From: an uncultured Candidatus Saccharimonadales bacterium | GTDB taxonomy: Bacteria; Patescibacteriota; Saccharimonadia; UBA4664 | Length of the DNA stretch: 24,000 bases | Assembly: GCA_964530365.1 (NCBI GenBank) | Contig: CAZGZY010000001.1 | Location: 6,348-30,347 of the forward strand | Direction of reading: 5' to 3' | The notes under the pieces: generated by a model | What the model saw: the letters and a program-made list of their open reading frames with translations, nothing else | Databases searched by the model: none | What the model was told of the DNA's origin: nothing | Made by a program: the position numbers and the translations under genes | Part shown: positions 1 to 21,393 of the stretch, in pieces | Layout: every line of letters starts with the position of its first letter | How positions within the stretch are numbered: position 1 is the stretch's first letter

Positions 1-1376
1 CGGCCACCACGGGGCTGGCGGCGAGCCACCTGGGAGGCAGTACGATCCATTCGTGGGCGGGTATTGGGATCGCCGACGAGTTGCCGGCGCATTTTGTGGC
101 GAATTTGAGCAAAGCGCGTCACGACATTATTACCAAAACCGACGTGCTAATTATTGACGAGATCTCGATGCTGCATGATTTTCGGCTAGACATGGTGGAC
201 CAGGCGGCGCGAATGGTGCGCGGGAGCGATGAGCCGTTTGGCGGCATTCAGGTGATTTTGTGCGGCGACTTTTTCCAGTTGCCGCCGGTGAGCCGGAATG
301 ATGCGCGAGCCGGCGGCTTTGTAACGGATTCGGCCGCCTGGCGCGAGCTGGACCCGGTGATTTGCCGGCTGGAAGAGCAGCACCGGCAAGACGACGCGGA
401 TTTTTTGGCGGTGCTGGGCGCGCTGCGGGCGGGCGATATTCGTCGCGGGCACGCTGAAGCGCTGATGAGTCGGTTGAACGCGCCGCTTTCGGGTGCCGTG
501 ACCGAATTGCATACCACCAACGTGGACGTTGACCGCATCAACGAGGCGCAGCTGGCGACGATTGACGGTGAGGCGCAAGTCTACCTGATGACGACCACAG
601 GTAAAGAAAACTACGTGGAGTCGCTCAAGCGGTCGTGTTTGGCGCCGGAGACCTTGGTGCTGAAGGTGGGGGCGCTGGTGATGTGCATTAAAAATTCGCC
701 GGACCGCCGGTATGTGAACGGGTCGCTGGGGGTGGTGACCGGGTTCGAGGTGCTCACCGGGTACCCGGAGGTGGAGTTGCGCAGCGGCCGGACCATTACG
801 GTGACGCCCGATGCCTGGGAGCTGCGTGACGGTGATAAAAAGCGCGCGTCGCTCACGCAATTGCCGTTGCGGCTAGCGTGGGCTATTACGGTCCATAAGA
901 GCCAGGGCATGACGCTCGATGCCGCGCGCATCGACCTGCGGCGGGCGTTTGTGCCGGGGATGGGGTATGTGGCGTTGAGCCGCGTACGGGGGCTGTCGAG
1001 CCTGAGCTTGGTGGGGATTAATCAGATGGCGCTCAAAGTGGCGCCGGAAGCGTTGGCGATGGACGGCGTGCTAGCGGCCAAGGGCGCGGCCGATGCCAAG
1101 CGGTTTGCGCAGCTGGCCGAAGCGGCCGAGCAGCGGCAAAACGCGCCCGAAGCGCCGTCTGGGGACAAGAGTTGGGGTGGCAAGCTCGAGGTGATGCGGG
1201 CGGTTTACCCGAACGCGTTTAGGCCTTGGCCGGCGGCCGACGATGCCAAATTGCGCGAATTGTTTGAGGGAGGCGCGGGGCTGGCGAGTTTGAGCGAGAC
1301 GTTTGGCCGTCATCCCGGCTCGATCCGGTCGCGGCTCAGGAAGCATTTTGGTGAGGATGTTTCGGTTCCCCGGTAG
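1..1376 (+). CDS. Pif1/RecD-family SF1B DNA helicase, 5'-truncated by the window edge
   Basis: Frame 3 is open from base 3: ATTGLAASHLGGSTIHSWAGIGIADE precedes the TTG at 81 that the ORF track uses, so the gene starts upstream of the window. Helicase motifs are VLIIDEISML (Walker B / motif II), ILCGDFFQLPPV (motif III), WAITVHKSQGMTLD and GYVALSRVR (motifs V/VI). The C-terminal ~90 aa (…DDAKLRELFEGGAGLASLSETFGRHPGSIRSRLRK) resembles the HTH-like tail seen on bacterial Pif1-like helicases. Confidence 0.85.
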   Translation, partial: ATTGLAASHLGGSTIHSWAGIGIADELPAHFVANLSKARHDIITKTDVLIIDEISMLHDFRLDMVDQAARMVRGSDEPFGGIQVILCGDFFQLPPVSRNDARAGGFVTDSAAWRELDPVICRLEEQHRQDDADFLAVLGALRAGDIRRGHAEALMSRLNAPLSGAVTELHTTNVDVDRINEAQLATIDGEAQVYLMTTTGKENYVESLKRSCLAPETLVLKVGALVMCIKNSPDRRYVNGSLGVVTGFEVLTGYPEVELRSGRTITVTPDAWELRDGDKKRASLTQLPLRLAWAITVHKSQGMTLDAARIDLRRAFVPGMGYVALSRVRGLSSLSLVGINQMALKVAPEALAMDGVLAAKGAADAKRFAQLAEAAEQRQNAPEAPSGDKSWGGKLEVMRAVYPNAFRPWPAADDAKLRELFEGGAGLASLSETFGRHPGSIRSRLRKHFGEDVSVPR

Positions 1377-4536: not shown

Positions 4537-5433
4537 TTAGTAGCGCTCGACGTTAATGGTTGAGGCGCCGCCGTCGACGCTGATGGTAATTTGGGTGGCG
4601 GCTGTGTCGAACCCTGGCGAGGTGTAGGTGTCGCCGCTCTGGTCTAGGCCGAGCGTGCCAAGGTTGTCGGTGATGAGGCCGCCGTTTTTGGTGATTTTGA
4701 GCGCGGCCGATTTCGGGGCGCGAATCTTCAGGCTGGAAGCGCCGCCGTTAACGCTGACCTTCTGGCGCGGGCTGGCACTGCCGAGGGTAATTGTGGTGTT
4801 GCTTGCGCCACCATCCAGGGTGAACGACGCGAAGTTGAGGTGAGACAGGTCGATGCGAGAGCGGCTAGCCCCGGAGTTTAGCGTGAGGTCAAGGGCGGGC
4901 CCCTGCGCGATGGCCAGGTCAAACTGGCGGTTGGCCCCGAACCACCAGTTGGAGTTGTTTGAATCGAGTTTGGCGGTGGCGGCGTCTGAGGTGCGGTGGA
5001 AGGATTGGCTAAGGGTGAACCCGTGGGTTGCGGCGGTGTAGAGCGCCGAGTCTGACGCGCCTAGAGCGGTGAGGTCGAAGTTGGTGGCGCCGGCCGAGAC
5101 GGTTAGCGTTAGCCGGGCGAGGCCCTGGCCGTCTGTTTGGGTGATGGATGAGGAGGGGTTTCCGTGTGCGTGCTGCCCGGTGACGGCGTCACGGAAGGGC
5201 TGGGGCGCGACCACCACGCCCACAATACTAATCGCCATGAGGCCGCCGAGCAGCCAGTCGGCCCAGGCGGTTGGGGGTAGCATTAGCCGCAGCCCGCCCA
5301 CAATGAGCAGGGCCGGCCAGAGCATAATTAGGAACCGCCAATCGAGCTGCCACCAGTGGTTGGTTACCCCCAAGAAGAGTACGCCCAGGCCTACGAGGAA
5401 AATGCCCGATAGAATCGAGTTTCGCGACCTCAT
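4537..5433 (-). CDS. LiaF/toastrack-like membrane protein
   Basis: Three N-terminal TM helices are followed by a beta-rich region with a periodic repeat: SAGATNFDL, NSGASRSRIDL, DGGASNTTITL, NGGASSLKIRA, DGGASTINV. It sits 4 nt downstream of a PspC-domain gene. PspC plus LiaF/toastrack is a well-known association. Confidence 0.6.
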   Translation of the reverse strand: MRSRNSILSGIFLVGLGVLFLGVTNHWWQLDWRFLIMLWPALLIVGGLRLMLPPTAWADWLLGGLMAISIVGVVVAPQPFRDAVTGQHAHGNPSSSITQTDGQGLARLTLTVSAGATNFDLTALGASDSALYTAATHGFTLSQSFHRTSDAATAKLDSNNSNWWFGANRQFDLAIAQGPALDLTLNSGASRSRIDLSHLNFASFTLDGGASNTTITLGSASPRQKVSVNGGASSLKIRAPKSAALKITKNGGLITDNLGTLGLDQSGDTYTSPGFDTAATQITISVDGGASTINVERY

Positions 5434-5437
5434 CGCG

Positions 5438-5875
5438 CTACCGCCGTTTCATAATGATGAACAGGCCGATGATAATGAGGATCATGGGCCAAGCGTAGCG
5501 CCAGACATCAAAACCGATGGTCTCCTGGATGAAAAACGCGACGCCGAGGCCAATTAGAATGATGCCGCCGAGCATCCGGCCTTGTGGGGAGCGTTCGTGG
5601 TAGTGCCGGTGGTCATGGGTGGCAGGGCGGTCGGTGGTTGTTTTGGTTTCGTCTGGTTCGGGCATGGCGGCCTCCTGGGGGGTTAATGGCGCTTCCGGGA
5701 TAATGATCCAGCCGACGGCGTAAACAAGCACGCCGGCGCCCCCGGCAATGGTCAGGACCAGAAACACGAGGCGGATGATGGTGGGGTCGATATTGAAGTA
5801 TTCGGCGATACCACCAGCGACGCCGGCGAGCATCCGGTTTGAGCGTGAGCGGTAGAGTATTTGGTGAGTTCCCAT
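5438..5875 (-). CDS. PspC-domain membrane protein
   Basis: The N-terminus LYRSRSNRMLAGVAGGIAEYFNIDPTIIRLVFLVLTIAGGAGVLVYAVGWIIIPE is the canonical PspC domain. It is followed by a His-rich linker and a second TM segment. Confidence 0.85.
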   Translation of the reverse strand: MGTHQILYRSRSNRMLAGVAGGIAEYFNIDPTIIRLVFLVLTIAGGAGVLVYAVGWIIIPEAPLTPQEAAMPEPDETKTTTDRPATHDHRHYHERSPQGRMLGGIILIGLGVAFFIQETIGFDVWRYAWPMILIIIGLFIIMKRR

Positions 5876-6346: not shown

Positions 6347-8785
6347 ATGGGGCAGCCAAAGGCGAATAACATAACCAGCCCGAAGAAGCGGGCCGATTCC
6401 TGGGAGGGCGTCGGCGTGAGCCAATGGCTGGGGGTGGCTCTTGCCGGAGTTGTGTCGGCATTGTTGTTTGTGGGGCTGACCAAGCTGGGGATGGATTGGC
6501 ACGTTTTTGACTTCCGGTTTAATCCCTACGCGTTGTTCTCGTTGGCGGCGGTCGCCAGCAACCTGGTTTTGTTGGTCCTGATCGGGCGGGTAAAAGAGAA
6601 AACGCACGATATGGTGTGGTTGTCGCTCTACATCACTTGTTTGCTGATGTGGGCGATCGTTGAGTTCTTTACCCGGATTAGCGCCAACACGGAAACATTT
6701 TTGTTCTGGTGGCCGATTTCGACGCTGCCGTCGTTTTTTATGCCCGTCATGCTGTTCATGTTTGTTTTGTCCTACACGAAGCCAAAACAGGGTCGGAACA
6801 TTTGGACTATCGTGCCGTTGTTTGTGGCGGCCATGCTGATGGTGTTCTTTGACCTGCGCACGCCCCTGTTTAACCACTATATCGCCCGGGAGGTGATAGC
6901 GACGCCCTGGAACGGGGCGGTGGCCCCAGGTATTTTTTACAACATGGTGGCGCTATGGATCGTTGGACTTACCGTACTCTCGATTGTGATGCTGGTGCTG
7001 TATTACCGGCGAACTCTGGAACCAACCCTCAAGCGGCAGGCGAGGCTTCTGATTATCGCGACGCTGGTGCCCGTTTCTGTCGGGATTGTGACCGATGCCC
7101 TGTTGCCGGCGCTAGGTATCTTTGACGTCCTGCCGCTGGCGGTGATGCTGACGGCTTTGTCGGGCGCGCTTTACACTTATGCAATTTTACGCTACCGGTT
7201 CCTGACCTTTAGTTCGTCGGTGGTGGCAGCGAATATCCTCGAGACCATCAACGAGGCGGTGATTGGGGTCGGCTCGGATTTGAGTATTAATTACGTGAAC
7301 CAGGGCGCCGAGAATTTATTGGGTTATTCGCGCGGGCAAATGGCAAAGCAGCATTTTAGCGACTTCCTGAGCCAAGATTGGTCCCAGGAGGATCTAAAGA
7401 AGTTCCTGCTTGTCCCCATGGTGCCGGGCCATCGGAGCGAGTTTGGGTCGATCGACTTACGGACGGCTGGGGGCGGGATCTTAACCGTGAAGCTATCCAT
7501 TTCGCAGGTCTCGGAAGACGGCATGCAACGGGGATATTTGGTAGTAATGACCGATATTAGCGAGATGGCCCGGGCCGCCGAGATGGTCGAGAAGGAGGTG
7601 CGGCAACGGACGCGGGAGGTGCGGGAGGCCGAAGCGACGCTCGTGACATCAATTAACAGTTTGAGGCTCGGGTTTATTATTACCAACGCGAAACCCGAGG
7701 TGATCCGGCTCAATACCGTGGCGCATGATTTGTTCTGCGGGAGCCATGAGCACACTGCGGGAGAATGCCGGGAGGTGACAGTCGCGAAGGTTCAGGCGGT
7801 GATGGGCAAGAGCATCGCGGTAGCCCAGGGCATCAACGAGTGTTTGCGGCGGCAATTGCCCAGCGAGTTTAATAATGTGGCTTCCCAGAATCGAAATTGG
7901 CGCGTGTACCTGTCGCCGATGGTGGTGGACCATAAATCGATTGGTTGCGCGGTCTTGCTGCAAGATACGACAGATGAGCAAATCTTGGAGCGTTCCCGGG
8001 ACGAGTTTTTCTCGATCGCCTCCCATGAGTTGCGGACTCCCCTGACCTCAATTAAGGGGAACTCCTCCCTCATCTTGGAGTACTACAAGGATGTCCTAAA
8101 AGACGCGACGCTCAAAGAAATGGTGACCGACATCCATGAATCGAGCGATCGGTTGATTGAGATTGTGAACGATTTCCTTGATGTCTCGCGGTTGGAGCAG
8201 GGTCGGATCGAGTTCCATTTGGAGCAGCTGTTGCTGCCGAAGGTAGTGGAGGAGGTGGCCTATGGGATGGGCGCCCTCATTAAGCAGAAAAACTTGCACT
8301 TGGTGTTGTCGCACAGCTTGGCGCGGTTGGACCAGATACCGGCGGTGGTGGCCGATAAAAACCGCCTGAAGCAAATATTGTTCAACTTGGTTGGCAACGC
8401 GGTTAAGTTTACGAACAAGGGCGGGCGGATCACCATTGGCGCATCGGTGTTGCCCGGGTTTGTTGAGGTGACGGTGGCGGATACAGGAGCGGGCATCTCG
8501 GCTGAATACCAGGCTTTGCTGTTCCATAAGTTTCAGCAGGCCAGCGACAGTATCCTGACGCGGGACTCGTCTAACGGGACCGGGCTTGGTCTGTACATCT
8601 CGCGGCTTTTGGCGGTTGGGATGGGCGGCACGCTTGAGCTTAGGAAATCGGAACTTGGTAAAGGCAGCGTGTTTGCGCTGCGGATATTGCTGGCGACGCC
8701 GGAGCGGCTCAAGCACTTGGGCGACTCGGCCAAGGTGCTTGATACCAAAAGCGGCTTGATGGTCGATAAAGAGTCTAGTAAGTAG
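6347..8785 (+). CDS. Sensor histidine kinase: multi-TM N-terminal sensor, PAS, HisKA, HATPase_c; no receiver domain
   Basis: About 7-8 hydrophobic helices in aa 20-285. A PAS-like segment (ILETINEAVIGVGSDLSINYVNQGAENLLGYSRGQM) is followed by a second sensory domain. H-box FSIASHELRTPLTSI, N-box LKQILFNLVGNAVKFT, G1 DTGAGIS, G2 GTGLGLYISR. GAGGAG lies 5-10 nt upstream of the ATG. Confidence 0.9.
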   Translation: MGQPKANNITSPKKRADSWEGVGVSQWLGVALAGVVSALLFVGLTKLGMDWHVFDFRFNPYALFSLAAVASNLVLLVLIGRVKEKTHDMVWLSLYITCLLMWAIVEFFTRISANTETFLFWWPISTLPSFFMPVMLFMFVLSYTKPKQGRNIWTIVPLFVAAMLMVFFDLRTPLFNHYIAREVIATPWNGAVAPGIFYNMVALWIVGLTVLSIVMLVLYYRRTLEPTLKRQARLLIIATLVPVSVGIVTDALLPALGIFDVLPLAVMLTALSGALYTYAILRYRFLTFSSSVVAANILETINEAVIGVGSDLSINYVNQGAENLLGYSRGQMAKQHFSDFLSQDWSQEDLKKFLLVPMVPGHRSEFGSIDLRTAGGGILTVKLSISQVSEDGMQRGYLVVMTDISEMARAAEMVEKEVRQRTREVREAEATLVTSINSLRLGFIITNAKPEVIRLNTVAHDLFCGSHEHTAGECREVTVAKVQAVMGKSIAVAQGINECLRRQLPSEFNNVASQNRNWRVYLSPMVVDHKSIGCAVLLQDTTDEQILERSRDEFFSIASHELRTPLTSIKGNSSLILEYYKDVLKDATLKEMVTDIHESSDRLIEIVNDFLDVSRLEQGRIEFHLEQLLLPKVVEEVAYGMGALIKQKNLHLVLSHSLARLDQIPAVVADKNRLKQILFNLVGNAVKFTNKGGRITIGASVLPGFVEVTVADTGAGISAEYQALLFHKFQQASDSILTRDSSNGTGLGLYISRLLAVGMGGTLELRKSELGKGSVFALRILLATPERLKHLGDSAKVLDTKSGLMVDKESSK

Positions 8786-11960: not shown

Positions 11961-12935
11961 CTAGTCCAAATACCCCAACACCCACTCGATGAGCGCCATG
12001 CGCGTCACCATGCCGTAATGCATTTGGCGAATGTAGGCGGCGCTGGGGGCGGTGTCGACCTCGGTTTTAATCTCACCGATACGCGGGAAGGGGTCGAGCA
12101 GTCGGGCGTGGGCGGGCAAGGCGGCGATTTCTTTGAGGCCAATAATGTATTTATCAATTGTCCCAGGATGGGCCGCCAAATACTTCTTTTGTAGATCGGT
12201 GTGGCGTTCAGCTTGGAATCTGTTCCAATAAACAATATCGGCGGTTTTGAACGCTGCTAGTGGCTCGGAGGTCTCTTCGTACTTAACGCCGGCCTTATCT
12301 AAGGTGCTCTTGATGTCGCTTTGCAATTCGAAGTTGGGGGGCGAAACGAAAGTGAAGTGGTTACCCGGGAATTTTGTTAGGACGAGAGCCAGGCTACGGA
12401 TAGTGCGGCTCTGGTTGGGGTCGATGCCGAAAACCACGTGCAGGCCTTGGAGCCGCCCAATCTCTTGCTGGATGGTGTAGAGGTCGAGCAGCGCTTGGGT
12501 GGGGTGCTCGCCGGAGCCGTCGCCGGCGTTGATAATGGGTGCGTCTGAGACGACGGCAGCCTGGGCGGCCTCGCCGGCGTTGGCGGACCGTAGCACGATT
12601 GAGCTTGGGCCATAGCAATTGATGGTGCGGATGGTGTCCTCGAGCGACTCGCCTTTAGACACCGAGGTAAACTGCACGCTCTGGGTACCGAGCACCGGCA
12701 TGCCCAGGTGGGTGGCGGCGAAGCCGAACGATTCGTAGGTGCGGGTGGACTCCTTGTAGAACAGGCGGTAGAGGATGTGCCCTGCCGGCGAGTCTCGCTC
12801 GGGGTGGCGGTGCGGCTGGTGGTGTTCGAGGTTGTATTGGATTTGGTCGGCGTGGGCAAATAAAACCCGGACGAGATCCGGGGTGAATTGGTCGGCGGAG
12901 AGGATGTGGCGAGGGCCTGTCGCGGGTGTGGGCAT
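11961..12935 (-). CDS. pyrB: Aspartate carbamoyltransferase catalytic-chain homologue
   Basis: ESTRT (carbamoyl-phosphate site), GSGEHPTQALLDLYTI (HPTQ), SRTIRS and WNRFQAER (ATCase R-x-Q-x-ER). The usual HPLPR is replaced by DPFPR. Strong GGAGG SD upstream. No other pyr gene is in the window. Confidence 0.8.
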   Translation of the reverse strand: MPTPATGPRHILSADQFTPDLVRVLFAHADQIQYNLEHHQPHRHPERDSPAGHILYRLFYKESTRTYESFGFAATHLGMPVLGTQSVQFTSVSKGESLEDTIRTINCYGPSSIVLRSANAGEAAQAAVVSDAPIINAGDGSGEHPTQALLDLYTIQQEIGRLQGLHVVFGIDPNQSRTIRSLALVLTKFPGNHFTFVSPPNFELQSDIKSTLDKAGVKYEETSEPLAAFKTADIVYWNRFQAERHTDLQKKYLAAHPGTIDKYIIGLKEIAALPAHARLLDPFPRIGEIKTEVDTAPSAAYIRQMHYGMVTRMALIEWVLGYLD

Positions 12936-13043
12936 AATACCTCCGTAAGTTGCATAAACTATACTCGGAAACGGTTTTGGCTACTAGTGACACGCCTCAC
13001 AGGTCGATGTTTAACTGAGAATTACGCCTTGCTGCTGCTCTTT

Positions 13044-13194
13044 TTCGCAAAAGTCTTTTCTTTGTCGGATTTAGGTGTACTATTTGTACCGTACAATTAG
13101 CATTTGCGACATTTAAATAAACTTTGCATTTTCGATACGTAATAATTTCCAAATTGTATTGCGAAGGGTTGAGCAAAGTTTGTGGGTTTCGCAA
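13044..13194. promoter_or_regulatory. AT-rich divergent control region with four copies of a TTGCGAA/TTCGCAA heptamer
   Basis: TTCGCAA at 13044-13050, TTGCGA(c) at 13104-13109, TTGCGAA at 13159-13165 and TTCGCAA at 13188-13194. The last two form an inverted repeat with a 22 nt spacer, 40 nt upstream of the first gene of the Hyf-like operon. The region is far more AT-rich than its flanks. Confidence 0.3.
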
Positions 13195-13233
13195 GGATGA
13201 TAAGGATAATAGCCACGTAAGGCTGCTCGGTTT

Positions 13234-13776
13234 ATGCGCGCTTTTTTAGCTAAAATTTTGTCGACACCCAAGAGTGTCATACCGGCCAACCAGATCTCTG
13301 AGACTGATCTTGAGGTGACCGAAGTTGGGGCCAAGATCCAAAGTCATGTGAAGCGGCTGTTTGGCGGCTCGCTGGCTATCCGGCAAGTGAACGCCGGTTC
13401 CGATGACGCTGCCGAGCACGAGCTCACGGCTCTCACGAACGCTTTTTACGACGTTGAGCGCTTTGGCGTGCACTTTGTGGCCTCGCCGCGCCACGCCGAT
13501 ATGCTGATGGTAACCGGACCGGTAACGCGCAACATGGCCGAGCCGCTGCGCCACGCCTACGATGCCACGCCTGAGCCGCGCATCGTGGTGGCCGTGGGTG
13601 ACGACGCGATTGACGGCGGGATTTTCCGTGGTTCGTACGCCGTCCACGATGGCGTGGAGCCGGTGATTCCAGTGCATTTTCGGATTCCTGGGGACCCGCC
13701 GTCGCCTAAGGCTATAATGGCTGGCCTACTTGAGATTCTCGGCCGGCTCGAAGTTGCCCGCGGAGAGCACAAATAA
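13234..13776 (+). CDS. hyfI: NuoB/HycG/HyfI-like 'hydrogenase small subunit' homologue, cysteine-free
   Basis: ERFGVHFVASPRHADMLMVTGPVTRNM, GGIFRGSYAV and VIPVHFRIPGDPPSP align with HycG/NuoB. The four cluster-ligand positions read GSDDAAE (vs GSCNGCE), GDDAIDGG (vs GACGNSGG) and PGDPP (vs PGCPP). The whole 180 aa protein contains no Cys. Confidence 0.85.
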   Translation: MRAFLAKILSTPKSVIPANQISETDLEVTEVGAKIQSHVKRLFGGSLAIRQVNAGSDDAAEHELTALTNAFYDVERFGVHFVASPRHADMLMVTGPVTRNMAEPLRHAYDATPEPRIVVAVGDDAIDGGIFRGSYAVHDGVEPVIPVHFRIPGDPPSPKAIMAGLLEILGRLEVARGEHK

Positions 13777-16753: not shown

Positions 16754-17403
16754 TTATGAACGCGCTCTTCTCCCAGTTTTTCATTACGCTTATTTTCATC
16801 ATGGCGGTTTACTTTCACATCGCAAAAAAGAACTTTAGCGTGGCGGTAATGTATGGGGTGCAGTCGGTGGCGATCGTGGCGCTATTGCTCGCCTCATTCC
16901 TGGAGCGAGGGTCGTTATCGCTCCTGCTGATCGCGCTCGTGACGTTTGTGGTGAAGGTGGTGCTGGCGCCGGTGTTTTTCATGCGGCTTGTAAAGCAGCA
17001 CCAGCTTAAGTTTACGGTGAGCTCATACCTGAGCACCCCGCTCACGCTCGTGATTGTGGCGGCCATCGCGGCTCTGACCAACTCGCGGATCTTTGCTCCC
17101 GTGACGCGCATTATGCCGGCCAATGAGGCCTACTTGGCGCTGGCGCTGTCGGCCATGCTGATCTCGATTTTCCTCATGATTAACCGCAAGAGCGCTTTGT
17201 CGCAAATTGTTGGTATATTGTCGTTGGAAAACAGCATCGTGGCGTTTGCCATTTTTTCCGGCTTGGAGCAGTCCCCAACCTTGCAGCTGGGGATTATCTT
17301 CGACATTTTCGTGTGGTTGATGATCGCGGTGGTGTTTGTGTCGATGATTTACCGCCACTTTGGGTCGCTGGATGTAACCTCTATGAAACACTTGAAGGAC
17401 TAA
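16750..17403 (+). CDS. hyfE: HyfE-like small membrane subunit
   Basis: 217 aa (E. coli HyfE is 216 aa) with 6-7 TM helices. It sits between the NuoH-like and NuoM/N-like genes exactly as in hyf operons. ATGA overlap with hyfC-like. Confidence 0.8.
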   Translation: MIMNALFSQFFITLIFIMAVYFHIAKKNFSVAVMYGVQSVAIVALLLASFLERGSLSLLLIALVTFVVKVVLAPVFFMRLVKQHQLKFTVSSYLSTPLTLVIVAAIAALTNSRIFAPVTRIMPANEAYLALALSAMLISIFLMINRKSALSQIVGILSLENSIVAFAIFSGLEQSPTLQLGIIFDIFVWLMIAVVFVSMIYRHFGSLDVTSMKHLKD

Positions 17404-17406
17404 CCT

Positions 17407-18849
17407 ATGGAACTGTTACTTATCTTCGCGGCTTTCGTTATTGCTGCTGTTACCGGGCTGGTGGCGCGGCGCAAGATCTTTTTTGAAACCGCGTCGGTCG
17501 CTGCGGGGATGGTGGCGCTGGCGGTGTCGGTGGACGTGGCCCTAAAAGTAGCTAGGGGTGGAGCGTACGAGCCGGCGGTATTCTTCTCGGTTGATTCGCT
17601 GGGCGCGATTATGATGCTTATTATTGCCTGCGTGGGGCTAGCCGCTACGGCCTACTCGGTGGCGTATTTGCATCGGGAGCTAGCCAAGGGCATCATTGGC
17701 ATGACCCGGGTGCGGCAGTTTTTTGTTCTCCTGAACGTGTTTTTGGCCGCCATGTTCTTGGCCATTACTTCCAGCAGCCCAATCGTGACCTGGGTTTCGG
17801 TGGAAGCCACTACCCTCTCGACCGCCTTCTTGATTAGCTTCTACAACAAGCCGTCGGCGATGGAGGCAGCCTGGAAGTACCTCATTATCAACTCCGTGGG
17901 CTTGCTGCTGGGCTTTTTTGGCACGCTATTGTACTTCACCTCCATTCACACCTCACTTGCCACCGAGTTTGTGACCTGGCACTCGCTGGCCTACAACGCG
18001 GCGCATTTGGACCCAGTGATTGCCAAGATGGCGTTCATTTTCGTGCTCATTGGTTACGGCACCAAAGTGGGTCTCGCGCCGATGCACACCTGGCTGCCCG
18101 ACGCGCACAGCAAGGCTCCGGTGCCGGTGAGCGCGTTGTTGTCCGGTGTGCTACTCAACGTGGCGCTGGTGGTGGTACTGCGGTTTAAGGTGATTACTGA
18201 CGCCGTAGCCGGCCAGTCGTTCTCGCAGAGCCTGCTGTTGGTGTTTGGGTTGCTGTCGGTGTTGTTCGCGGCGCTGATCATCATGACCCAAAAGAACTAC
18301 AAACGGCTGCTGGCTTACTCGTCAATCGAGAATATGGGCATTATGGCGCTTGGGTTCGGGTTTGGTGGCCTCGGGGTGTTTGCCGCGGTCCTGCACATGA
18401 TCTACCACGCGTTAGTGAAGTCGGCGCTGTTTTTGACCTCTGGCACGATCTTCCTGAAATATAGCTCCACCAAGCTCGTCAACGTGACCGGCGTGCTCAA
18501 GGCGCTGCCGGTGACGGGCGTATTGTTCTTGCTCGGCTTCTTTGCCATTGCCGGCATGCCGCCGTTTGGAATCTTTCTCACCAAGATCTTGATTTTGACT
18601 GCCGGCATTAAAGCCAACCCGGTTGTGGCGGTTGTCGCGTTGCTGCTCGTGGCCGTGTTGTTTATCGGCTTCTTCAAACATGTGTCGGCGATGGTGTCCG
18701 GCGAGAAGCCGGCCGACGTCGCGGCTGGCGAGACGAGCATTTGGCTCATTTTGCCGCCCCTGGCGCTGATTCTGACGGCTCTTGTCTTTAGTATTCATAT
18801 CCCCCAATTCTTACAAACATTGCTGCATGACGCAGCGGCGAGGTATTAA
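17407..18849 (+). CDS. hyfF: HyfF/HyfD-like (NuoM/N-type) antiporter-like membrane subunit
   Basis: Motifs: WVSVEATTLSTAFLI, GYGTKVGLAPMHTWLPDAHSKAPVPVSALLSGVLLNVAL, LLAYSSIENMG, HALVKSALFLTSG and PPFGIFLTKIL. 480 aa. Confidence 0.85.
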   Translation: MELLLIFAAFVIAAVTGLVARRKIFFETASVAAGMVALAVSVDVALKVARGGAYEPAVFFSVDSLGAIMMLIIACVGLAATAYSVAYLHRELAKGIIGMTRVRQFFVLLNVFLAAMFLAITSSSPIVTWVSVEATTLSTAFLISFYNKPSAMEAAWKYLIINSVGLLLGFFGTLLYFTSIHTSLATEFVTWHSLAYNAAHLDPVIAKMAFIFVLIGYGTKVGLAPMHTWLPDAHSKAPVPVSALLSGVLLNVALVVVLRFKVITDAVAGQSFSQSLLLVFGLLSVLFAALIIMTQKNYKRLLAYSSIENMGIMALGFGFGGLGVFAAVLHMIYHALVKSALFLTSGTIFLKYSSTKLVNVTGVLKALPVTGVLFLLGFFAIAGMPPFGIFLTKILILTAGIKANPVVAVVALLLVAVLFIGFFKHVSAMVSGEKPADVAAGETSIWLILPPLALILTALVFSIHIPQFLQTLLHDAAARY

Positions 18850-20417
18850 TGGCTACAATCAATTTGCAACAATATATCCCAGATAGCGCTCAGATGGAGC
18901 AGTATGGCAATGTGGTGGCTTTTGAGGTTCCGACGAGCGAGATTGTGGCGTTGGTGACGGATTGGTACGCTAACCAGCATTTGTCCCTCAAGCTCATTGA
19001 CGCGACCGACGAGACTGCGGACGGCGATGGGTTTAAGGTGTGGTACGTGTTTGGCGTGCCGGGGGCGGCGAAGTTCTTGGCGGCGTATATTCGCATTGGA
19101 AAAGACGGGCAATTCCCGTCTTTGGCCGGCGCGGTACATGAGGCTGGCGCCTACGAGAAGAAGATTCGGACATTTTTCGGGCTCAACCCGGTGGGCTACC
19201 CGGATCCCCGTCCGGCGCTGCTACACGAAAATTGGCCAACCACGCTACATCCGTTGCGCAAGGGCTTTGCCGGTACAATGCGACCCAAAGATGCCCACGG
19301 CACGTATAAGATGCAGGTTGTGGAGGGCGAAGGCATTTACGAGATTCCGGTGGGGCCAATTCATGCCGGCATCATTGGCCCGGGGCACTTCCGGTTTAGC
19401 GTGGCCGGTGAAGAGATTATCTTGCTCGACCCGAAGCTGGGGTGGTCGCACCGTGGCGTTGAGAAGCTGTTTGAAGGGTTTGAGCTGGCCGACCAAATTC
19501 GGTTGTCGGAGAAGGTGTCGGGTGATAGTTCGTTTGGCCACTCGCTGGCATTTTGCCAAGCGGTGGAGGCTCTGGGCGGCATTGCGGTGCCGGAGCGGGC
19601 GAAGTTCCTGCGCGTGATCTACGCCGAGCTGGAACGCCTGGCCAACCACTTTGGCGACATTGGCTTTATTATGCTCGATACTGGTTTCAATTTCGGCGGT
19701 TCTCAGGGTGCGCGGTTGCGTGAGGCTATCATGCAGATCAACGGTCGGCTGACCGGCAGCCGGTTCCTGCGCGGCGTGAACGTGGTGGGTGGTGTGGCTC
19801 GCGATATTACCAAAGACGAGCGCTTGGACTTGCCGCGCGAGCCGCGGATGGCCAAGGATTTCACCGAGCTCATTGAGATCGCCGAGAGTAGCATCTCGGT
19901 GCTAAACCGCCTCAAGGGCACCGGCCGCTTGCCGCGCGACATCGCCGAAGACCATGGCGTGGTAGGCGTTGGGGCTCGGGCGGTAGGCCTGGCAGCCGAT
20001 GTGCGCGCCGACCACCCTTACGCGGCTTATGGCGAGCTGGGGCCAATCGACGTGGCCGTGGAGCAAAGCGGCGACGTGTACGCCCGATTCCGAGTACGGG
20101 TGAAGGAGGTCATTGCCTCGCTGGAGCTCATTCGGGGCGCAGTGGCAGCTCTGCCTGAGGGCGAGATCGTCAGCCGTCACGCGGATAAGCCTCTGGCGAA
20201 GAGCGCGGTGGCCATTGGCTTGGTAGAGGGCTGGCGCGGCGAGATCGCCTACTTTGTGCGTACCGACGCGAAGGGCGCCATTAGCCGGGTGGCTGTGCGC
20301 GACCCTTCGGCCGCCAACTGGCAGGCGGTGCCGTATTGCGCCCCCGGCATGATGGTGCCCGACTTCCCGCTCATCAACAAGAGTTTCAACTTGTCTTACT
20401 CGGGTAACGACCTTTAG
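18849..20417 (+). CDS. hyfG: HyfG/HycE-like (NuoC-NuoD fusion) 'large subunit' homologue lacking Ni-Fe ligands
   Basis: NuoC-like N-domain: YEKKIRTFFGLNPVGYPDPRPALLHENWPTTLHPLRKGF. NuoD/large-subunit core: IPVGPIHAGIIGPGHFRFSVAGEEIILLDPKLGWSHRGVEKL. The L1 motif reads EKVSGDSSFGHS (vs ERxCGxCxxxHS). The C-terminus reads FNLSYSGNDL-stop (vs DPCxxCxxR plus a cleavable tail). Confidence 0.9.
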   Translation: MATINLQQYIPDSAQMEQYGNVVAFEVPTSEIVALVTDWYANQHLSLKLIDATDETADGDGFKVWYVFGVPGAAKFLAAYIRIGKDGQFPSLAGAVHEAGAYEKKIRTFFGLNPVGYPDPRPALLHENWPTTLHPLRKGFAGTMRPKDAHGTYKMQVVEGEGIYEIPVGPIHAGIIGPGHFRFSVAGEEIILLDPKLGWSHRGVEKLFEGFELADQIRLSEKVSGDSSFGHSLAFCQAVEALGGIAVPERAKFLRVIYAELERLANHFGDIGFIMLDTGFNFGGSQGARLREAIMQINGRLTGSRFLRGVNVVGGVARDITKDERLDLPREPRMAKDFTELIEIAESSISVLNRLKGTGRLPRDIAEDHGVVGVGARAVGLAADVRADHPYAAYGELGPIDVAVEQSGDVYARFRVRVKEVIASLELIRGAVAALPEGEIVSRHADKPLAKSAVAIGLVEGWRGEIAYFVRTDAKGAISRVAVRDPSAANWQAVPYCAPGMMVPDFPLINKSFNLSYSGNDL

Positions 20418-20466
20418 CGTTTTCCGAATCGACAAACGCTGCTAAAGCCGGGATAATAATATTGCT

Positions 20467-21393
20467 ATGATTACGTTTTATTATCGCAGTATGCGCGAGG
20501 ACAAGTTGGTTAAGCTGCCGGCGTTTAAGGCCGGGGCGTGGGTGCACGTGGAGGCGCCCAGCCGCGCTGAACTGCAAGGACTCACCGAGAAATTCGGGCT
20601 TGACCCCGACCTTTTGGGCGATGCCCTGGACCCCGACGAGATCCCCCGCGCCGAGGTGGAGGGCGAAGTGGTGTATCTGTATATGCGCTACGCCTACCGC
20701 CAAGGCGACATCGTGGAGACCGACCCCGTGCTGCTGGCCGTGGGCGCTAATTTTGTGGTGACGGTGGCGCGCAATCCGCTGCCCGGCCTGGAGCGGTTCT
20801 TGGCTTCAGCGGTGCTGTTTACGACCCAGCGGGCCAAATTGCTACTGTTGCTCATGAGATACCTGGTGCTCAGCTATGAATCGAATGTGAAGTACCTAGA
20901 CCGCCAGATTCGCGGTGTGCGAGCCAAGATGAACGTGGCAACGGTCAACAACCGCGATTTCGTGCAGTTTGTGGTAATTGAAGACGCCCTTAACTCATTT
21001 TTGGCCGAGCTCGTGCCGGAAACGCTATTGCTCCAGAGCTTGCTGTCGGGCCGACAGAAGCTGACGTTCCACGAGGACGACAAAGACTTAATTGAAGACC
21101 TAGTGCAAGCTACCCGCCAGCTCGATGAATCGAGTCGGTCGAGCTTGCGTACCATCGTGAACATCCGCGAAGCCTATTCGAACATCATGACCAACAACCT
21201 AAACCGGCGCGTGGAATTGCTCACGTCACTGACGGTGGTGCTCACGATCCCGACCATCGTTTTTAGCCTCTGGGGCGTCAATGTGCCGGTGCCAGGCGCC
21301 GGCAATCCCCACGCTTTCGCGTTCTTGGGGATGGGCACTCTGGCGATGATTATCGCCGTGCTGTATTGGTTGTATCGCAGACGCTGGCTGTAA
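20467..21393 (+). CDS. corA: CorA-family divalent-cation channel (GVN variant of the GMN motif)
   Basis: Cytoplasmic alpha/beta plus coiled-coil region, then LTVVLTIPTIVFSLWGVNVPVPG, a second TM helix and the basic tail YRRRWL. This is the canonical CorA C-terminal architecture. It lies 49 nt downstream of hyfG-like on the same strand. Confidence 0.85.
   Translation: MITFYYRSMREDKLVKLPAFKAGAWVHVEAPSRAELQGLTEKFGLDPDLLGDALDPDEIPRAEVEGEVVYLYMRYAYRQGDIVETDPVLLAVGANFVVTVARNPLPGLERFLASAVLFTTQRAKLLLLLMRYLVLSYESNVKYLDRQIRGVRAKMNVATVNNRDFVQFVVIEDALNSFLAELVPETLLLQSLLSGRQKLTFHEDDKDLIEDLVQATRQLDESSRSSLRTIVNIREAYSNIMTNNLNRRVELLTSLTVVLTIPTIVFSLWGVNVPVPGAGNPHAFAFLGMGTLAMIIAVLYWLYRRRWL

Follow-up and report, generated by a model that had tools for sequence, protein, structure and literature searches.

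Gene Content of the Locus

We analyzed a 24,000-nucleotide stretch of DNA from an uncultured Candidatus Saccharimonadales bacterium (assembly GCA_964530365.1, contig CAZGZY010000001.1, forward-strand positions 6,348 to 30,347; hereafter "the window") and focused on a gene for a homologue of NuoB, HycG, and MbhJ, the small subunits of complex I and of group 4 [NiFe]-hydrogenases. The encoded protein contains not a single Cys, as a check of the translation confirmed, and its gene opens a six-gene operon with intact open reading frames (ORFs) and junctions that either overlap or span 1–4 bp (Table 1). The other five genes encode four membrane subunits resembling HyfB, HyfC, HyfE, and HyfF and a NuoC–NuoD fusion as the large subunit; the HyfC-, HyfE-, and HyfF-like proteins match Hyf-type models below the equivalog cutoffs. 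The order of the six genes was identical in all 23 loci examined from bacteria of the candidate phyla radiation (CPR), one of which ends at a contig edge. Judged by its gene content, the complex is still built like group 4 [NiFe]-hydrogenases and like the Q and P modules of complex I.

Table 1. Features of the window discussed in the text (positions are those of the window)
Feature	Position	Strand	Basis or remark
Pif1-like helicase	81-1376	+	
PspC/LiaF-like membrane stress pair	4537-5875	-	
Histidine kinase, 812 aa, seven transmembrane helices and PAS domain	6347-8785	+	
pyrB, divergent, upstream of the operon	11961-12935	-	Profile match
Intergenic region, 298 bp, presumed promoter region	12936..13233	.	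Between pyrB and the small-subunit gene
Small subunit (NuoB/HycG/MbhJ homologue, EhrS-like), 180 aa, no Cys	13234..13776	+	Profile match, alignments, predicted fold
D57, former [4Fe-4S] ligand column 1 (GAT)	13402..13404	+	Opposite Cys of MbhJ and HycG
A60, former ligand column 2 (GCC)	13411..13413	+	Opposite Cys of MbhJ and HycG
D123 and D124	13600..13605	+	D124 (GAC, 13603-13605), former ligand column 3; D123, its invariant neighbor
D127, additional acidic/amide residue of the D123/D124 loop	13612..13614	+	Orthologue alignment
D154, former ligand column 4 (PGCPP to PGDPP; GAC)	13693..13695	+	Alignment to PDB homologues
HyfB-like antiporter-type membrane subunit, 683 aa	13776..15827	+	NCBIfam hydrogenase 4 subunit B NF005086, 693 bits vs. 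667
HyfC/HycD/NuoH-like membrane subunit, 307 aa	15830..16753	+	Pfam NADHdh; HycD 7z0s_D, E 6e-40
HyfE-like membrane subunit, 217 aa	16750..17403	+	Profile matches
HyfF-like antiporter-type membrane subunit, 480 aa	17407..18849	+	Profile matches
HyfF-like residue 393	18583-18585	+	Lys or Glu among CPR orthologues
NuoC–NuoD (HycE-like) fusion large subunit, 522 aa, no NiFe ligands	18849..20417	+	HycE 7z0s_E, E 1.5e-73
Large-subunit residue 177	19377-19379	+	Gly in the window
S224, NiFe Cys column	19518-19520	+	HycE alignment
S227, NiFe Cys column	19527-19529	+	HycE alignment
S516, NiFe Cys column	20394-20396	+	HycE alignment
G519, NiFe Cys column	20403-20405	+	HycE alignment
Promoter-like site of the CorA gene	20429-20457		Sigma-70-like, 10/12 matches
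CorA-family Mg2+/Co2+ channel gene	20467-21393		50 bp downstream of the operon

The assignment to the NuoB/HycG family, made in a first-pass annotation from the nucleotide sequence alone, was borne out by profile and sequence searches. The small subunit matched Pfam Oxidored_q6 (PF01058) with 82.4 bits against a cutoff of 27 (residues 61–167), while remaining under the NCBIfam cutoffs for NuoB (NF005012, 108.1 < 116; TIGR01957, 102.8 < 142.7) and far under that of every NCBIfam equivalog model. Its matches to hydrogenase subunits among PDB sequences (phmmer, E ~1e-27 to 1e-28) were headed by Pyrococcus furiosus MbhJ (6cfw_J; E 3e-28, residues 41–172) and included Escherichia coli HycG (7z0s_G; E 2.6e-27, residues 32–174). 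We also predicted the structure, as the annotation had proposed. The AlphaFold2 model, built with 27 homologues, reached a mean predicted local distance difference test score (pLDDT) of 85.3, and Foldseek returned MbhJ 6cfw_J as the nearest solved structure (template modeling score 0.89, root-mean-square deviation 2.0 Å over 137 columns), along with many PSST chains of complex I. According to this model, the flavodoxin-like fold of the small subunit is retained.

The four Cys that bind the proximal or N2 [4Fe-4S] cluster in a bona fide hydrogenase small subunit or NuoB are replaced by D57, A60, D124, and D154. The surroundings of all ligands are free of gaps in the HMMER alignments to MbhJ and HycG: GSDDAAE pairs with GSCNGCD (MbhJ) and GGCNGCE (HycG), GDDAIDGG with GACPTGG (MbhJ) and GACGNSGG (HycG), and PGDPP with the PGCPP of both. 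A MAFFT alignment with 120 orthologues gave the identical column assignment, and the by-eye placement of the four residues and their codons in the first-pass annotation thus stands, as does its observation that the flanking family motifs (SPRHADMLMVTGPVT, GGIF, and IPGDPP) are present. With these residues, ligation of a [4Fe-4S] cluster in the known manner is predicted to be impossible for the window's small subunit.

An Acidic Pocket at the Former Cluster Site

For the conservation of the site, we used the best 120 of thousands of relatives found in a search of 5.8 billion proteins. These orthologues share 62–75% identity with the query, and nearly all the named ones belong to Patescibacteria, that is, CPR (Parcubacteria, Magasanikbacteria, Saccharimonadales, and Staskawiczbacteria). 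Asp dominates at the former ligand columns 57 (D in 106, T in 11, S in 3), 124 (D in 118, G in 2), and 154 (D in 104, N in 16), and also at column 123 (D in all 120) and column 127 (D in 76, N in 36, other residues in 8). Column 60, on the other hand, is mostly Cys (C in 97, A in 14, E in 4, other residues in 5). The D/A/D/D pattern put forward in the first-pass annotation therefore holds across orthologues for its three Asp but not for its Ala: the consensus of the ligand columns is DCDD, and the window's DADD is a minority state found in 9 of the 120, and also in the related locus L007. With Cys at position 60 in 97 orthologues, the family is not generally Cys-free; 9 of the 120 proteins are wholly without Cys.

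The annotation had further envisaged a carboxylate-rich pocket. The six pocket columns indeed contain three to five carboxylates in each of the 120 orthologues, although the proposed composition was incomplete, as D123 and D127 would line the pocket too; that the side chains converge is deduced from homology to four residues that jointly ligate a single cubane. Asp makes up 7% of the residues in the small-subunit family, so three Asp among the four named columns would be expected by chance at ~1e-3 for a single sequence. Columns 123 and 124 are near-invariant (0 and 0.12 bit of entropy, compared with a median of 0.25 bit for the core of the protein), and replacements at 57, 127, and 154 are confined to D/T/S or D/N, that is, to oxygen-bearing side chains. 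Moreover, Glu at column 60 covaries with Gly at column 124: 8 of the 11 cases of G124 carry E60, which on the alignment amounts to relocating a carboxylate, in compensation, within one ancestral cubane site. A subfamily in which ligand column 3 is Gly and column 2 is Glu (S/T/N-E-D-G-x-D; L006, L014, L016, L018, L022, L031, and L037; P0121, P0123, and P0129) likewise appears to have moved a carboxylate between former ligand positions. The Asp pattern, the oxygen-bearing replacements, and the E60/G124 compensation agree with the earlier view that the substitutions are not random.

Equivalents of D123 and D127 are already present in the closest relatives that keep all four Cys (pattern CCDCDC). 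These two residues thus predate the loss of Cys, and the CPR clade has gained only D57, D124, and D154. The large subunit, for its part, has conserved basic residues at K/R/H222, the Arg of the RxCGxC motif, and at the invariant R308. A columnwise contrast with 53–55 Cys-bearing relatives revealed no newly acquired, CPR-specific basic residue in either the small or the large subunit, which leaves the already conserved K/R/H222 and R308 as the sole candidates for charge compensation. Considered together, the comparisons argue that an acidic pocket is maintained by selection at the old cluster site, and the suggestion that this pocket may bind a divalent cation is a reasonable hypothesis.

Redox Sites, Membrane Subunits, and Selection

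The small subunit is not the only one to have lost its ligands. In the alignment with HycE, the NiFe Cys columns of the large subunit hold S224, S227, S516, and G519, and 17 further CPR orthologues likewise lack the NiFe-binding Cys of the L1 (RxCGxCxxxH) and L2 (DPCxxCxxH/R) motifs. In the same alignment, I176 and G225 stand where Nqo4 of complex I has its quinone-site residues H38 and Y87. No ORF of the window contains a ferredoxin-type CxxCxxCxxxC motif, the lone match lying in a noncoding frame, and none of the 20 CPR loci screened has an ORF for a two-cluster ferredoxin (HycF/HyfH/EchF/MbhN/NuoI) on the operon strand. The operon has no NuoI or NuoE–G genes and no N module, and the 24-kb window contains no Hyp maturation genes. 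As the large subunit is devoid of NiFe Cys and a ferredoxin subunit is missing, the loss of the Fe–S cluster belongs to a loss that extends to all redox sites; with small-subunit [4Fe-4S] ligands, NiFe ligands, and ferredoxin subunit all gone, the complex has no predicted redox cofactor site.

The former NiFe region is marked by the motifs VGPxHAGIIEPGHFRF, ExxSGDSSFxHS, and LINKSFNLSYSGND. Within it, residue 177 is Gly in the window and Glu in 17 of 17 other CPR orthologues and in all related loci that have the region (GIIEPGHF). The column is aligned to the Glu of DEPGHF in HycE and of EEPEKF in MbhL, and the change E177G is private to the window.

Among the membrane subunits, charged residues are strongly conserved. 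E148, K230, K261, H351, K359, and E414 of the HyfB-like protein are invariant among 17 CPR orthologues, and among 17–19 orthologues the same is true of E133, K220, and K338 of the HyfF-like and E160 of the HyfE-like protein. In the HyfC-like protein, E188, R191, D195, E202, and E208 are invariant across the CPR orthologues and E213 is found in 18 of 19. The two antiporter-type subunits resemble MrpA and MrpD and have the conserved Glu of transmembrane helix 5 and Lys/Glu of helices 7 and 12 expected of Mrp-type proteins, with helices numbered by motif. Residue 393 of the HyfF-like protein is Lys in nine and Glu in nine CPR orthologues; we take it to be the charged residue of transmembrane helix 12, in which case the K/E split would resemble the difference between NuoN/NuoL and NuoM. 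The Kaiserbacteria locus L010 has an extra HyfF-like gene (17205-18680) after the large-subunit gene, and its product is closer to the window's HyfF-like protein (64%) than is that of the in-operon copy of L010 (56%).

We computed Nei–Gojobori statistics for the six genes between the window and five CPR loci, a comparison of nonsynonymous and synonymous rates (dN and dS) that the first-pass annotation had proposed. The proportion of nonsynonymous differences (pN) was 0.23–0.34 and that of synonymous differences (pS) 0.68–1.02; synonymous sites are saturated, and the result can be read only qualitatively as dN << dS. At otherwise invariant columns, the window shows 0, 2, 1, 0, 0, and 4 private changes in the six proteins in order, a range typical of other members. 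The low pN against saturated pS and the lack of an excess of private changes indicate purifying selection and an operon that is not a pseudogene.

Relatives and Origin of the Cys-Free Clades

Eighty related loci emerged when 185,579 species genomes were scanned. The large subunit lacks the NiFe Cys in 80 of 80, and all of them are thus of Ehr/Hyq type (Ehr, energy-converting hydrogenase-related). In the CPR loci among the 80, the small-subunit gene comes first and the small subunits were classed as a Cys-free clade, whereas most other lineages, including rhizobial Hyq-like, Nitrospirae, Acidobacteria, Rokubacteria, and Chloroflexi loci, keep the Cys (CCxCxC) and usually have the small-subunit gene last. 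Many of the Cys-keeping lineages already have Asp at the equivalents of 123 and 127 (CCDCDC). L023, L043, L046, L065, and most rhizobial and Nitrospirae loci keep the four small-subunit Cys yet have no ferredoxin (HycF/NuoI) gene and no NiFe ligands, and the single Fe–S cluster of these Cys-keeping Ehr/Hyq clusters has no obvious electron donor or acceptor.

A second Cys-free clade comprises Methanosarcina, Methanomicrobiales, and Dehalococcoidales metagenome-assembled genomes (MAGs), with the small-subunit gene last and the pocket DPDDDN or DTDDDN. Its loci are L036 (9995-10510; Methanosarcina sp. Mfa9 chromosome NZ_CP195119.1), L020, L021, L024, L030, and L042, and the NiFe columns of its large subunit read S/E/S/G. 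A third, small Cys-free clade has the pocket TEDG(D/T)(D/E). Each of the three received 100% bootstrap support in neighbor joining on Kimura distances, while the deep nodes were unresolved. A clade uniting every Cys-free lineage appeared in 4 of 100 replicates, and in 89 of 100 any split uniting the CPR and Methanosarcina-type clades also took in Cys-bearing taxa. Neighbor joining on BLOSUM distances placed the CPR clade beside a Cys-bearing clade that has the small-subunit gene first, a grouping recovered in 1 of 100 replicates of the Kimura-distance bootstrap. Given the Cys-bearing taxa between the clades and their differing gene order, convergent replacement of Cys by Asp in the CPR and Methanosarcina-type clades is likely, though not proven by these trees.

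Genomic Neighborhood

In 9 of the 23 CPR loci, a complete F1Fo ATP synthase operon directly adjoins the Ehr-like operon on the same strand, upstream in eight and downstream in one. The distance from the end of atpC to the small-subunit gene ranges from roughly 0–500 bp (L004, L009, and L001) to ~4 kb (L011). The ATP synthase-adjacent loci (L001, 3179-9428; L084, 3053-9750; L085, 3329-9892; and L004, L005, L009, L011, L013, and L016) are spread over different subclades. The c subunits of these enzymes have a single Asp or Glu and no Na+ motif, which makes them look like the H+ type. The Methanosarcina-type locus L036 has no ATP synthase neighbor.

Scans for promoters and terminators upstream of the window's operon were empty, with no match to the sigma-70 consensus. 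The window's MetK shares 83% identity with the protein of a Patescibacteria MAG and 66% with its counterpart in a Saccharimonadia MAG, which, along with the CPR origin of nearly all named small-subunit hits, marks the host as CPR. Of the more distant genes in the window, a PspC/LiaF-like pair, a histidine kinase, and a Pif1-like helicase are listed in Table 1. The G+C content of the window is ~57%, which is high for a CPR genome, and its GC skew is positive almost throughout.

Interpretation and Alternative Explanations

The explanation we favor, with a probability of roughly 0.55, is that the protein is the small subunit of a six-subunit Ehr-type complex of CPR bacteria that acts as a redox-independent ion translocator, its former cluster cavity being a selected acidic pocket. 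Such a complex would no longer transfer electrons. Its ion translocation would not depend on redox chemistry and would most simply be a Mrp-like cation/proton exchange, in an ion circuit presumably shared with the H+-type F1Fo ATP synthase often encoded alongside. Where the small and large subunits meet, the old cluster cavity would be filled by three to five carboxylates (D57, D123, D124, D127, and D154, or E60 when residue 124 is Gly). Their negative charge needs a counterpart, for which there are three candidates: a bound hard cation (Mg2+, Ca2+, or a monovalent ion), protons, or salt bridges with K/R/H222 and R308 on the large subunit. The data do not decide among the three; in each case, the carboxylate cluster and its charge balance would keep the interface folded and charged at the site of the former cubane. 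CPR bacteria generally lack respiratory chains, a background that a redox-free ion translocator fits.

Several observations weigh against this explanation. In 14 of the 23 CPR loci, the window included, no synteny with ATP synthase is seen. A plain antiporter would have no obvious need of a conserved peripheral arm, and the former NiFe region is highly conserved and polar, with E221, D226, H172, and H180 invariant, which hints at an activity beyond that of a mere scaffold. Within the pocket, D57 and D154 (~0.6 bit) and position 60 (1.0 bit) are conserved only averagely or worse. Most orthologues keep one Cys at column 2, and an alternative metal site of one Cys and three Asp is therefore conceivable. 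Finally, the helix labels given to the charged membrane residues come from NuoL/M/N motifs, which we presume to apply here, and not from a structural alignment.

It is possible, if on balance unlikely, that the pocket binds an ion or metal specifically and in doing so senses, gates, or drives transport; the binding and release of a divalent cation or of protons at D57, D123, D124, D127, and D154 would then replace the charge change at N2 and the quinone as the trigger of conformational coupling to the membrane arm. The three to five carboxylates of every orthologue, the restriction of replacements to oxygen ligands, the Asp at the same columns of the second Cys-free clade, and the polar, strongly conserved former NiFe site next to it would all suit such a role, as would the lack of a new compensating basic residue in the large subunit of CPR compared with Cys-bearing loci, although K/R/H222 and R308 could partly neutralize the charge without any metal. 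The CorA gene close downstream of the operon would also suit it, but none of the 23 related CPR loci has CorA as a neighbor, and the gene comes with a promoter-like site of its own; we rejected it as evidence for the cation idea. Columns 57, 60, and 154, moreover, tolerate T/S, A/V/L, and N, respectively, which is loose for a tight metal site. A still bolder version, which we regard as doubtful, has a redox-free machine of the complex I/hydrogenase type in which the carboxylate cluster and the polar former NiFe site bind and release a cation or protons; the resulting change of charge would drive or gate translocation through the antiporter arm, and the machine would form a unit with the F1Fo ATP synthase.

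At the opposite extreme, the pocket would be a neutral relic: after the redox function had been lost, Cys drifted to hydrophilic cavity fillers, the small subunit serves as an assembly scaffold, and the identity of the Asp has no function. The variability of column 60 (C/A/E/V/T/L), the average entropy of D57 and D154, the frequent Asn at 127, and the greater age of D123 and D127 relative to the Cys loss are what drift would leave behind. Drift would hardly keep Asp in 120 of 120 orthologues at column 123 and in 118 at column 124 at an identity of 62–75%, nor would it bar hydrophobic residues entirely from 57, 124, 127, and 154, produce the covariation of E60 with G124, and arrive at a similar Asp pattern in a second clade; burying several like charges together carries a cost that drift would not be expected to sustain. 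We therefore consider a neutral relic improbable. That an Fe–S cluster or another redox metal is still bound through Asp, with the help of Cys60 in most orthologues, and receives electrons from an unidentified partner is very improbable. Single Asp ligands to [4Fe-4S] clusters are known, for example in P. furiosus ferredoxin, 81% of the orthologues keep the pocket Cys, and the sister Ehr/Hyq complexes retain four Cys, also without a ferredoxin gene; the window protein, on the other hand, is entirely without Cys, and we know of no [4Fe-4S] cluster ligated by three or four carboxylates. Lacking NiFe ligands, the quinone-site His and Tyr, and an electron-input subunit, the complex offers no partner for electron transfer. 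Hardly credible at all is a decaying pseudogene or operon in the window genome: A60 is a minority state where 81% have Cys and E177G of the large subunit is private, at a Glu shared by all 80 related loci, but the six ORFs are intact with tight junctions, the counts of private changes are typical of other members, and DADD recurs in other orthologues and in L007.

Significance

Ehr complexes are widespread, and the CPR type is an extreme case in which every predicted redox site has been lost while the six-subunit architecture and the transmembrane charges remain under purifying selection. This, together with the frequent ATP synthase neighborhood, suggests that even in the absence of electron transfer the scaffold of hydrogenases and complex I can serve a purpose, probably the translocation of ions. 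The finding bears on the handling of membrane potential in CPR bacteria, which generally have no respiratory chain, and on how charge changes at N2 or the active site are coupled to the antiporter modules of complex I and membrane-bound hydrogenases. Were the redox-free machine with an ion-switched pocket true, it would provide a natural, redox-free model of complex I coupling and would form a core part of the energy economy of the CPR cell. The replacement of Cys by Asp supplies defined residues and a defined pocket at which ions can be probed.

Comparison with Known Systems

The closest described relatives are the Ehr complexes, group 4-like clusters of unknown function whose large subunit lacks the CxxC motifs, that is, the NiFe Cys (PMC6349859, PMC4378227, PMC10284858, PMC10432482; also treated in PMC4758237 and PMC7894505). 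A monophyletic CPR clade of Ehr without the metal-binding Cys of the large subunit was reported by Jaffe et al. 2020 (PMC7304191). The window complex fits the definition of Ehr by its large subunit without NiFe Cys (PMC6349859, PMC7304191, PMC10284858) and has the same subunit set, that is, a NuoC–D fusion, HyfB, HyfF, a NuoH-like protein, and HyfE (PMC6349859, Suppl. Note 4); the CPR members form a clade of their own. It differs in the small subunit: the Ehr type of Margulisbacteria and Firmicutes carries a NuoB–NuoI fusion with Fe–S motifs (PMC6349859, Suppl. Note 4), as do thermophile complexes and L045, L064, and L074, whereas the window's protein of 180 aa has neither a NuoI domain nor Cys. 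Most non-CPR relatives, furthermore, keep four small-subunit Cys where the window has D/A/D/D. The Ehr papers found in the full-text literature report loss of Cys for the large subunit only, and in that literature, whose coverage excludes the founding papers of Coppi 2005 and Marreiros 2013, there was no description of the small-subunit Cys-to-Asp replacement, the lack of NuoI from CPR complexes, or the synteny with ATP synthase. The parent Ehr family was already known as nonhydrogenase.

The group 4 [NiFe]-hydrogenases (HycG, 7Z0S chain G; MbhJ, 6CFW chain J) provide the best sequence matches, share family motifs, length, and the partners HycC, HycD, and HycE, and include in MbhJ the best fold match. 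The window complex has the Hyf-type membrane subunits (HyfB, C, E, and F) but lacks the four [4Fe-4S] Cys, the NiFe site with its Cys, and the HycF/MbhN ferredoxin subunit, and its small-subunit gene comes first in the operon rather than last. With NuoB/Nqo6/PSST/NDUFS7 of complex I, the carrier of cluster N2, it shares PF01058, the fold, and, by homology, an interface with NuoD- and NuoH-like subunits; it differs in having no N2 ligands, N module, or NuoI, in the Ile and Gly at the quinone-site His and Tyr columns, and in scores below the NuoB cutoffs. The rhizobial Hyq and Cys-keeping Ehr-like clusters (Bradyrhizobium, Mesorhizobium, Nitrospirae, Rokubacteria, and Chloroflexi; L023-L083) have the same subunits, the same S/S/S/G at the NiFe columns, the equivalents of D123 and D127, and usually no ferredoxin gene, but they keep the four cluster Cys and mostly have the small-subunit gene last.

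The Mrp antiporters, for their part, have no homologues of NuoB, NuoD, and NuoH and possess MrpE, MrpF, and MrpG instead, genes for which were not seen in the window operon. What the two share are two MrpA/MrpD-like subunits with conserved transmembrane Glu and Lys and no redox cofactor, and by this analogy Mrp would be the closest functional counterpart of the window complex.

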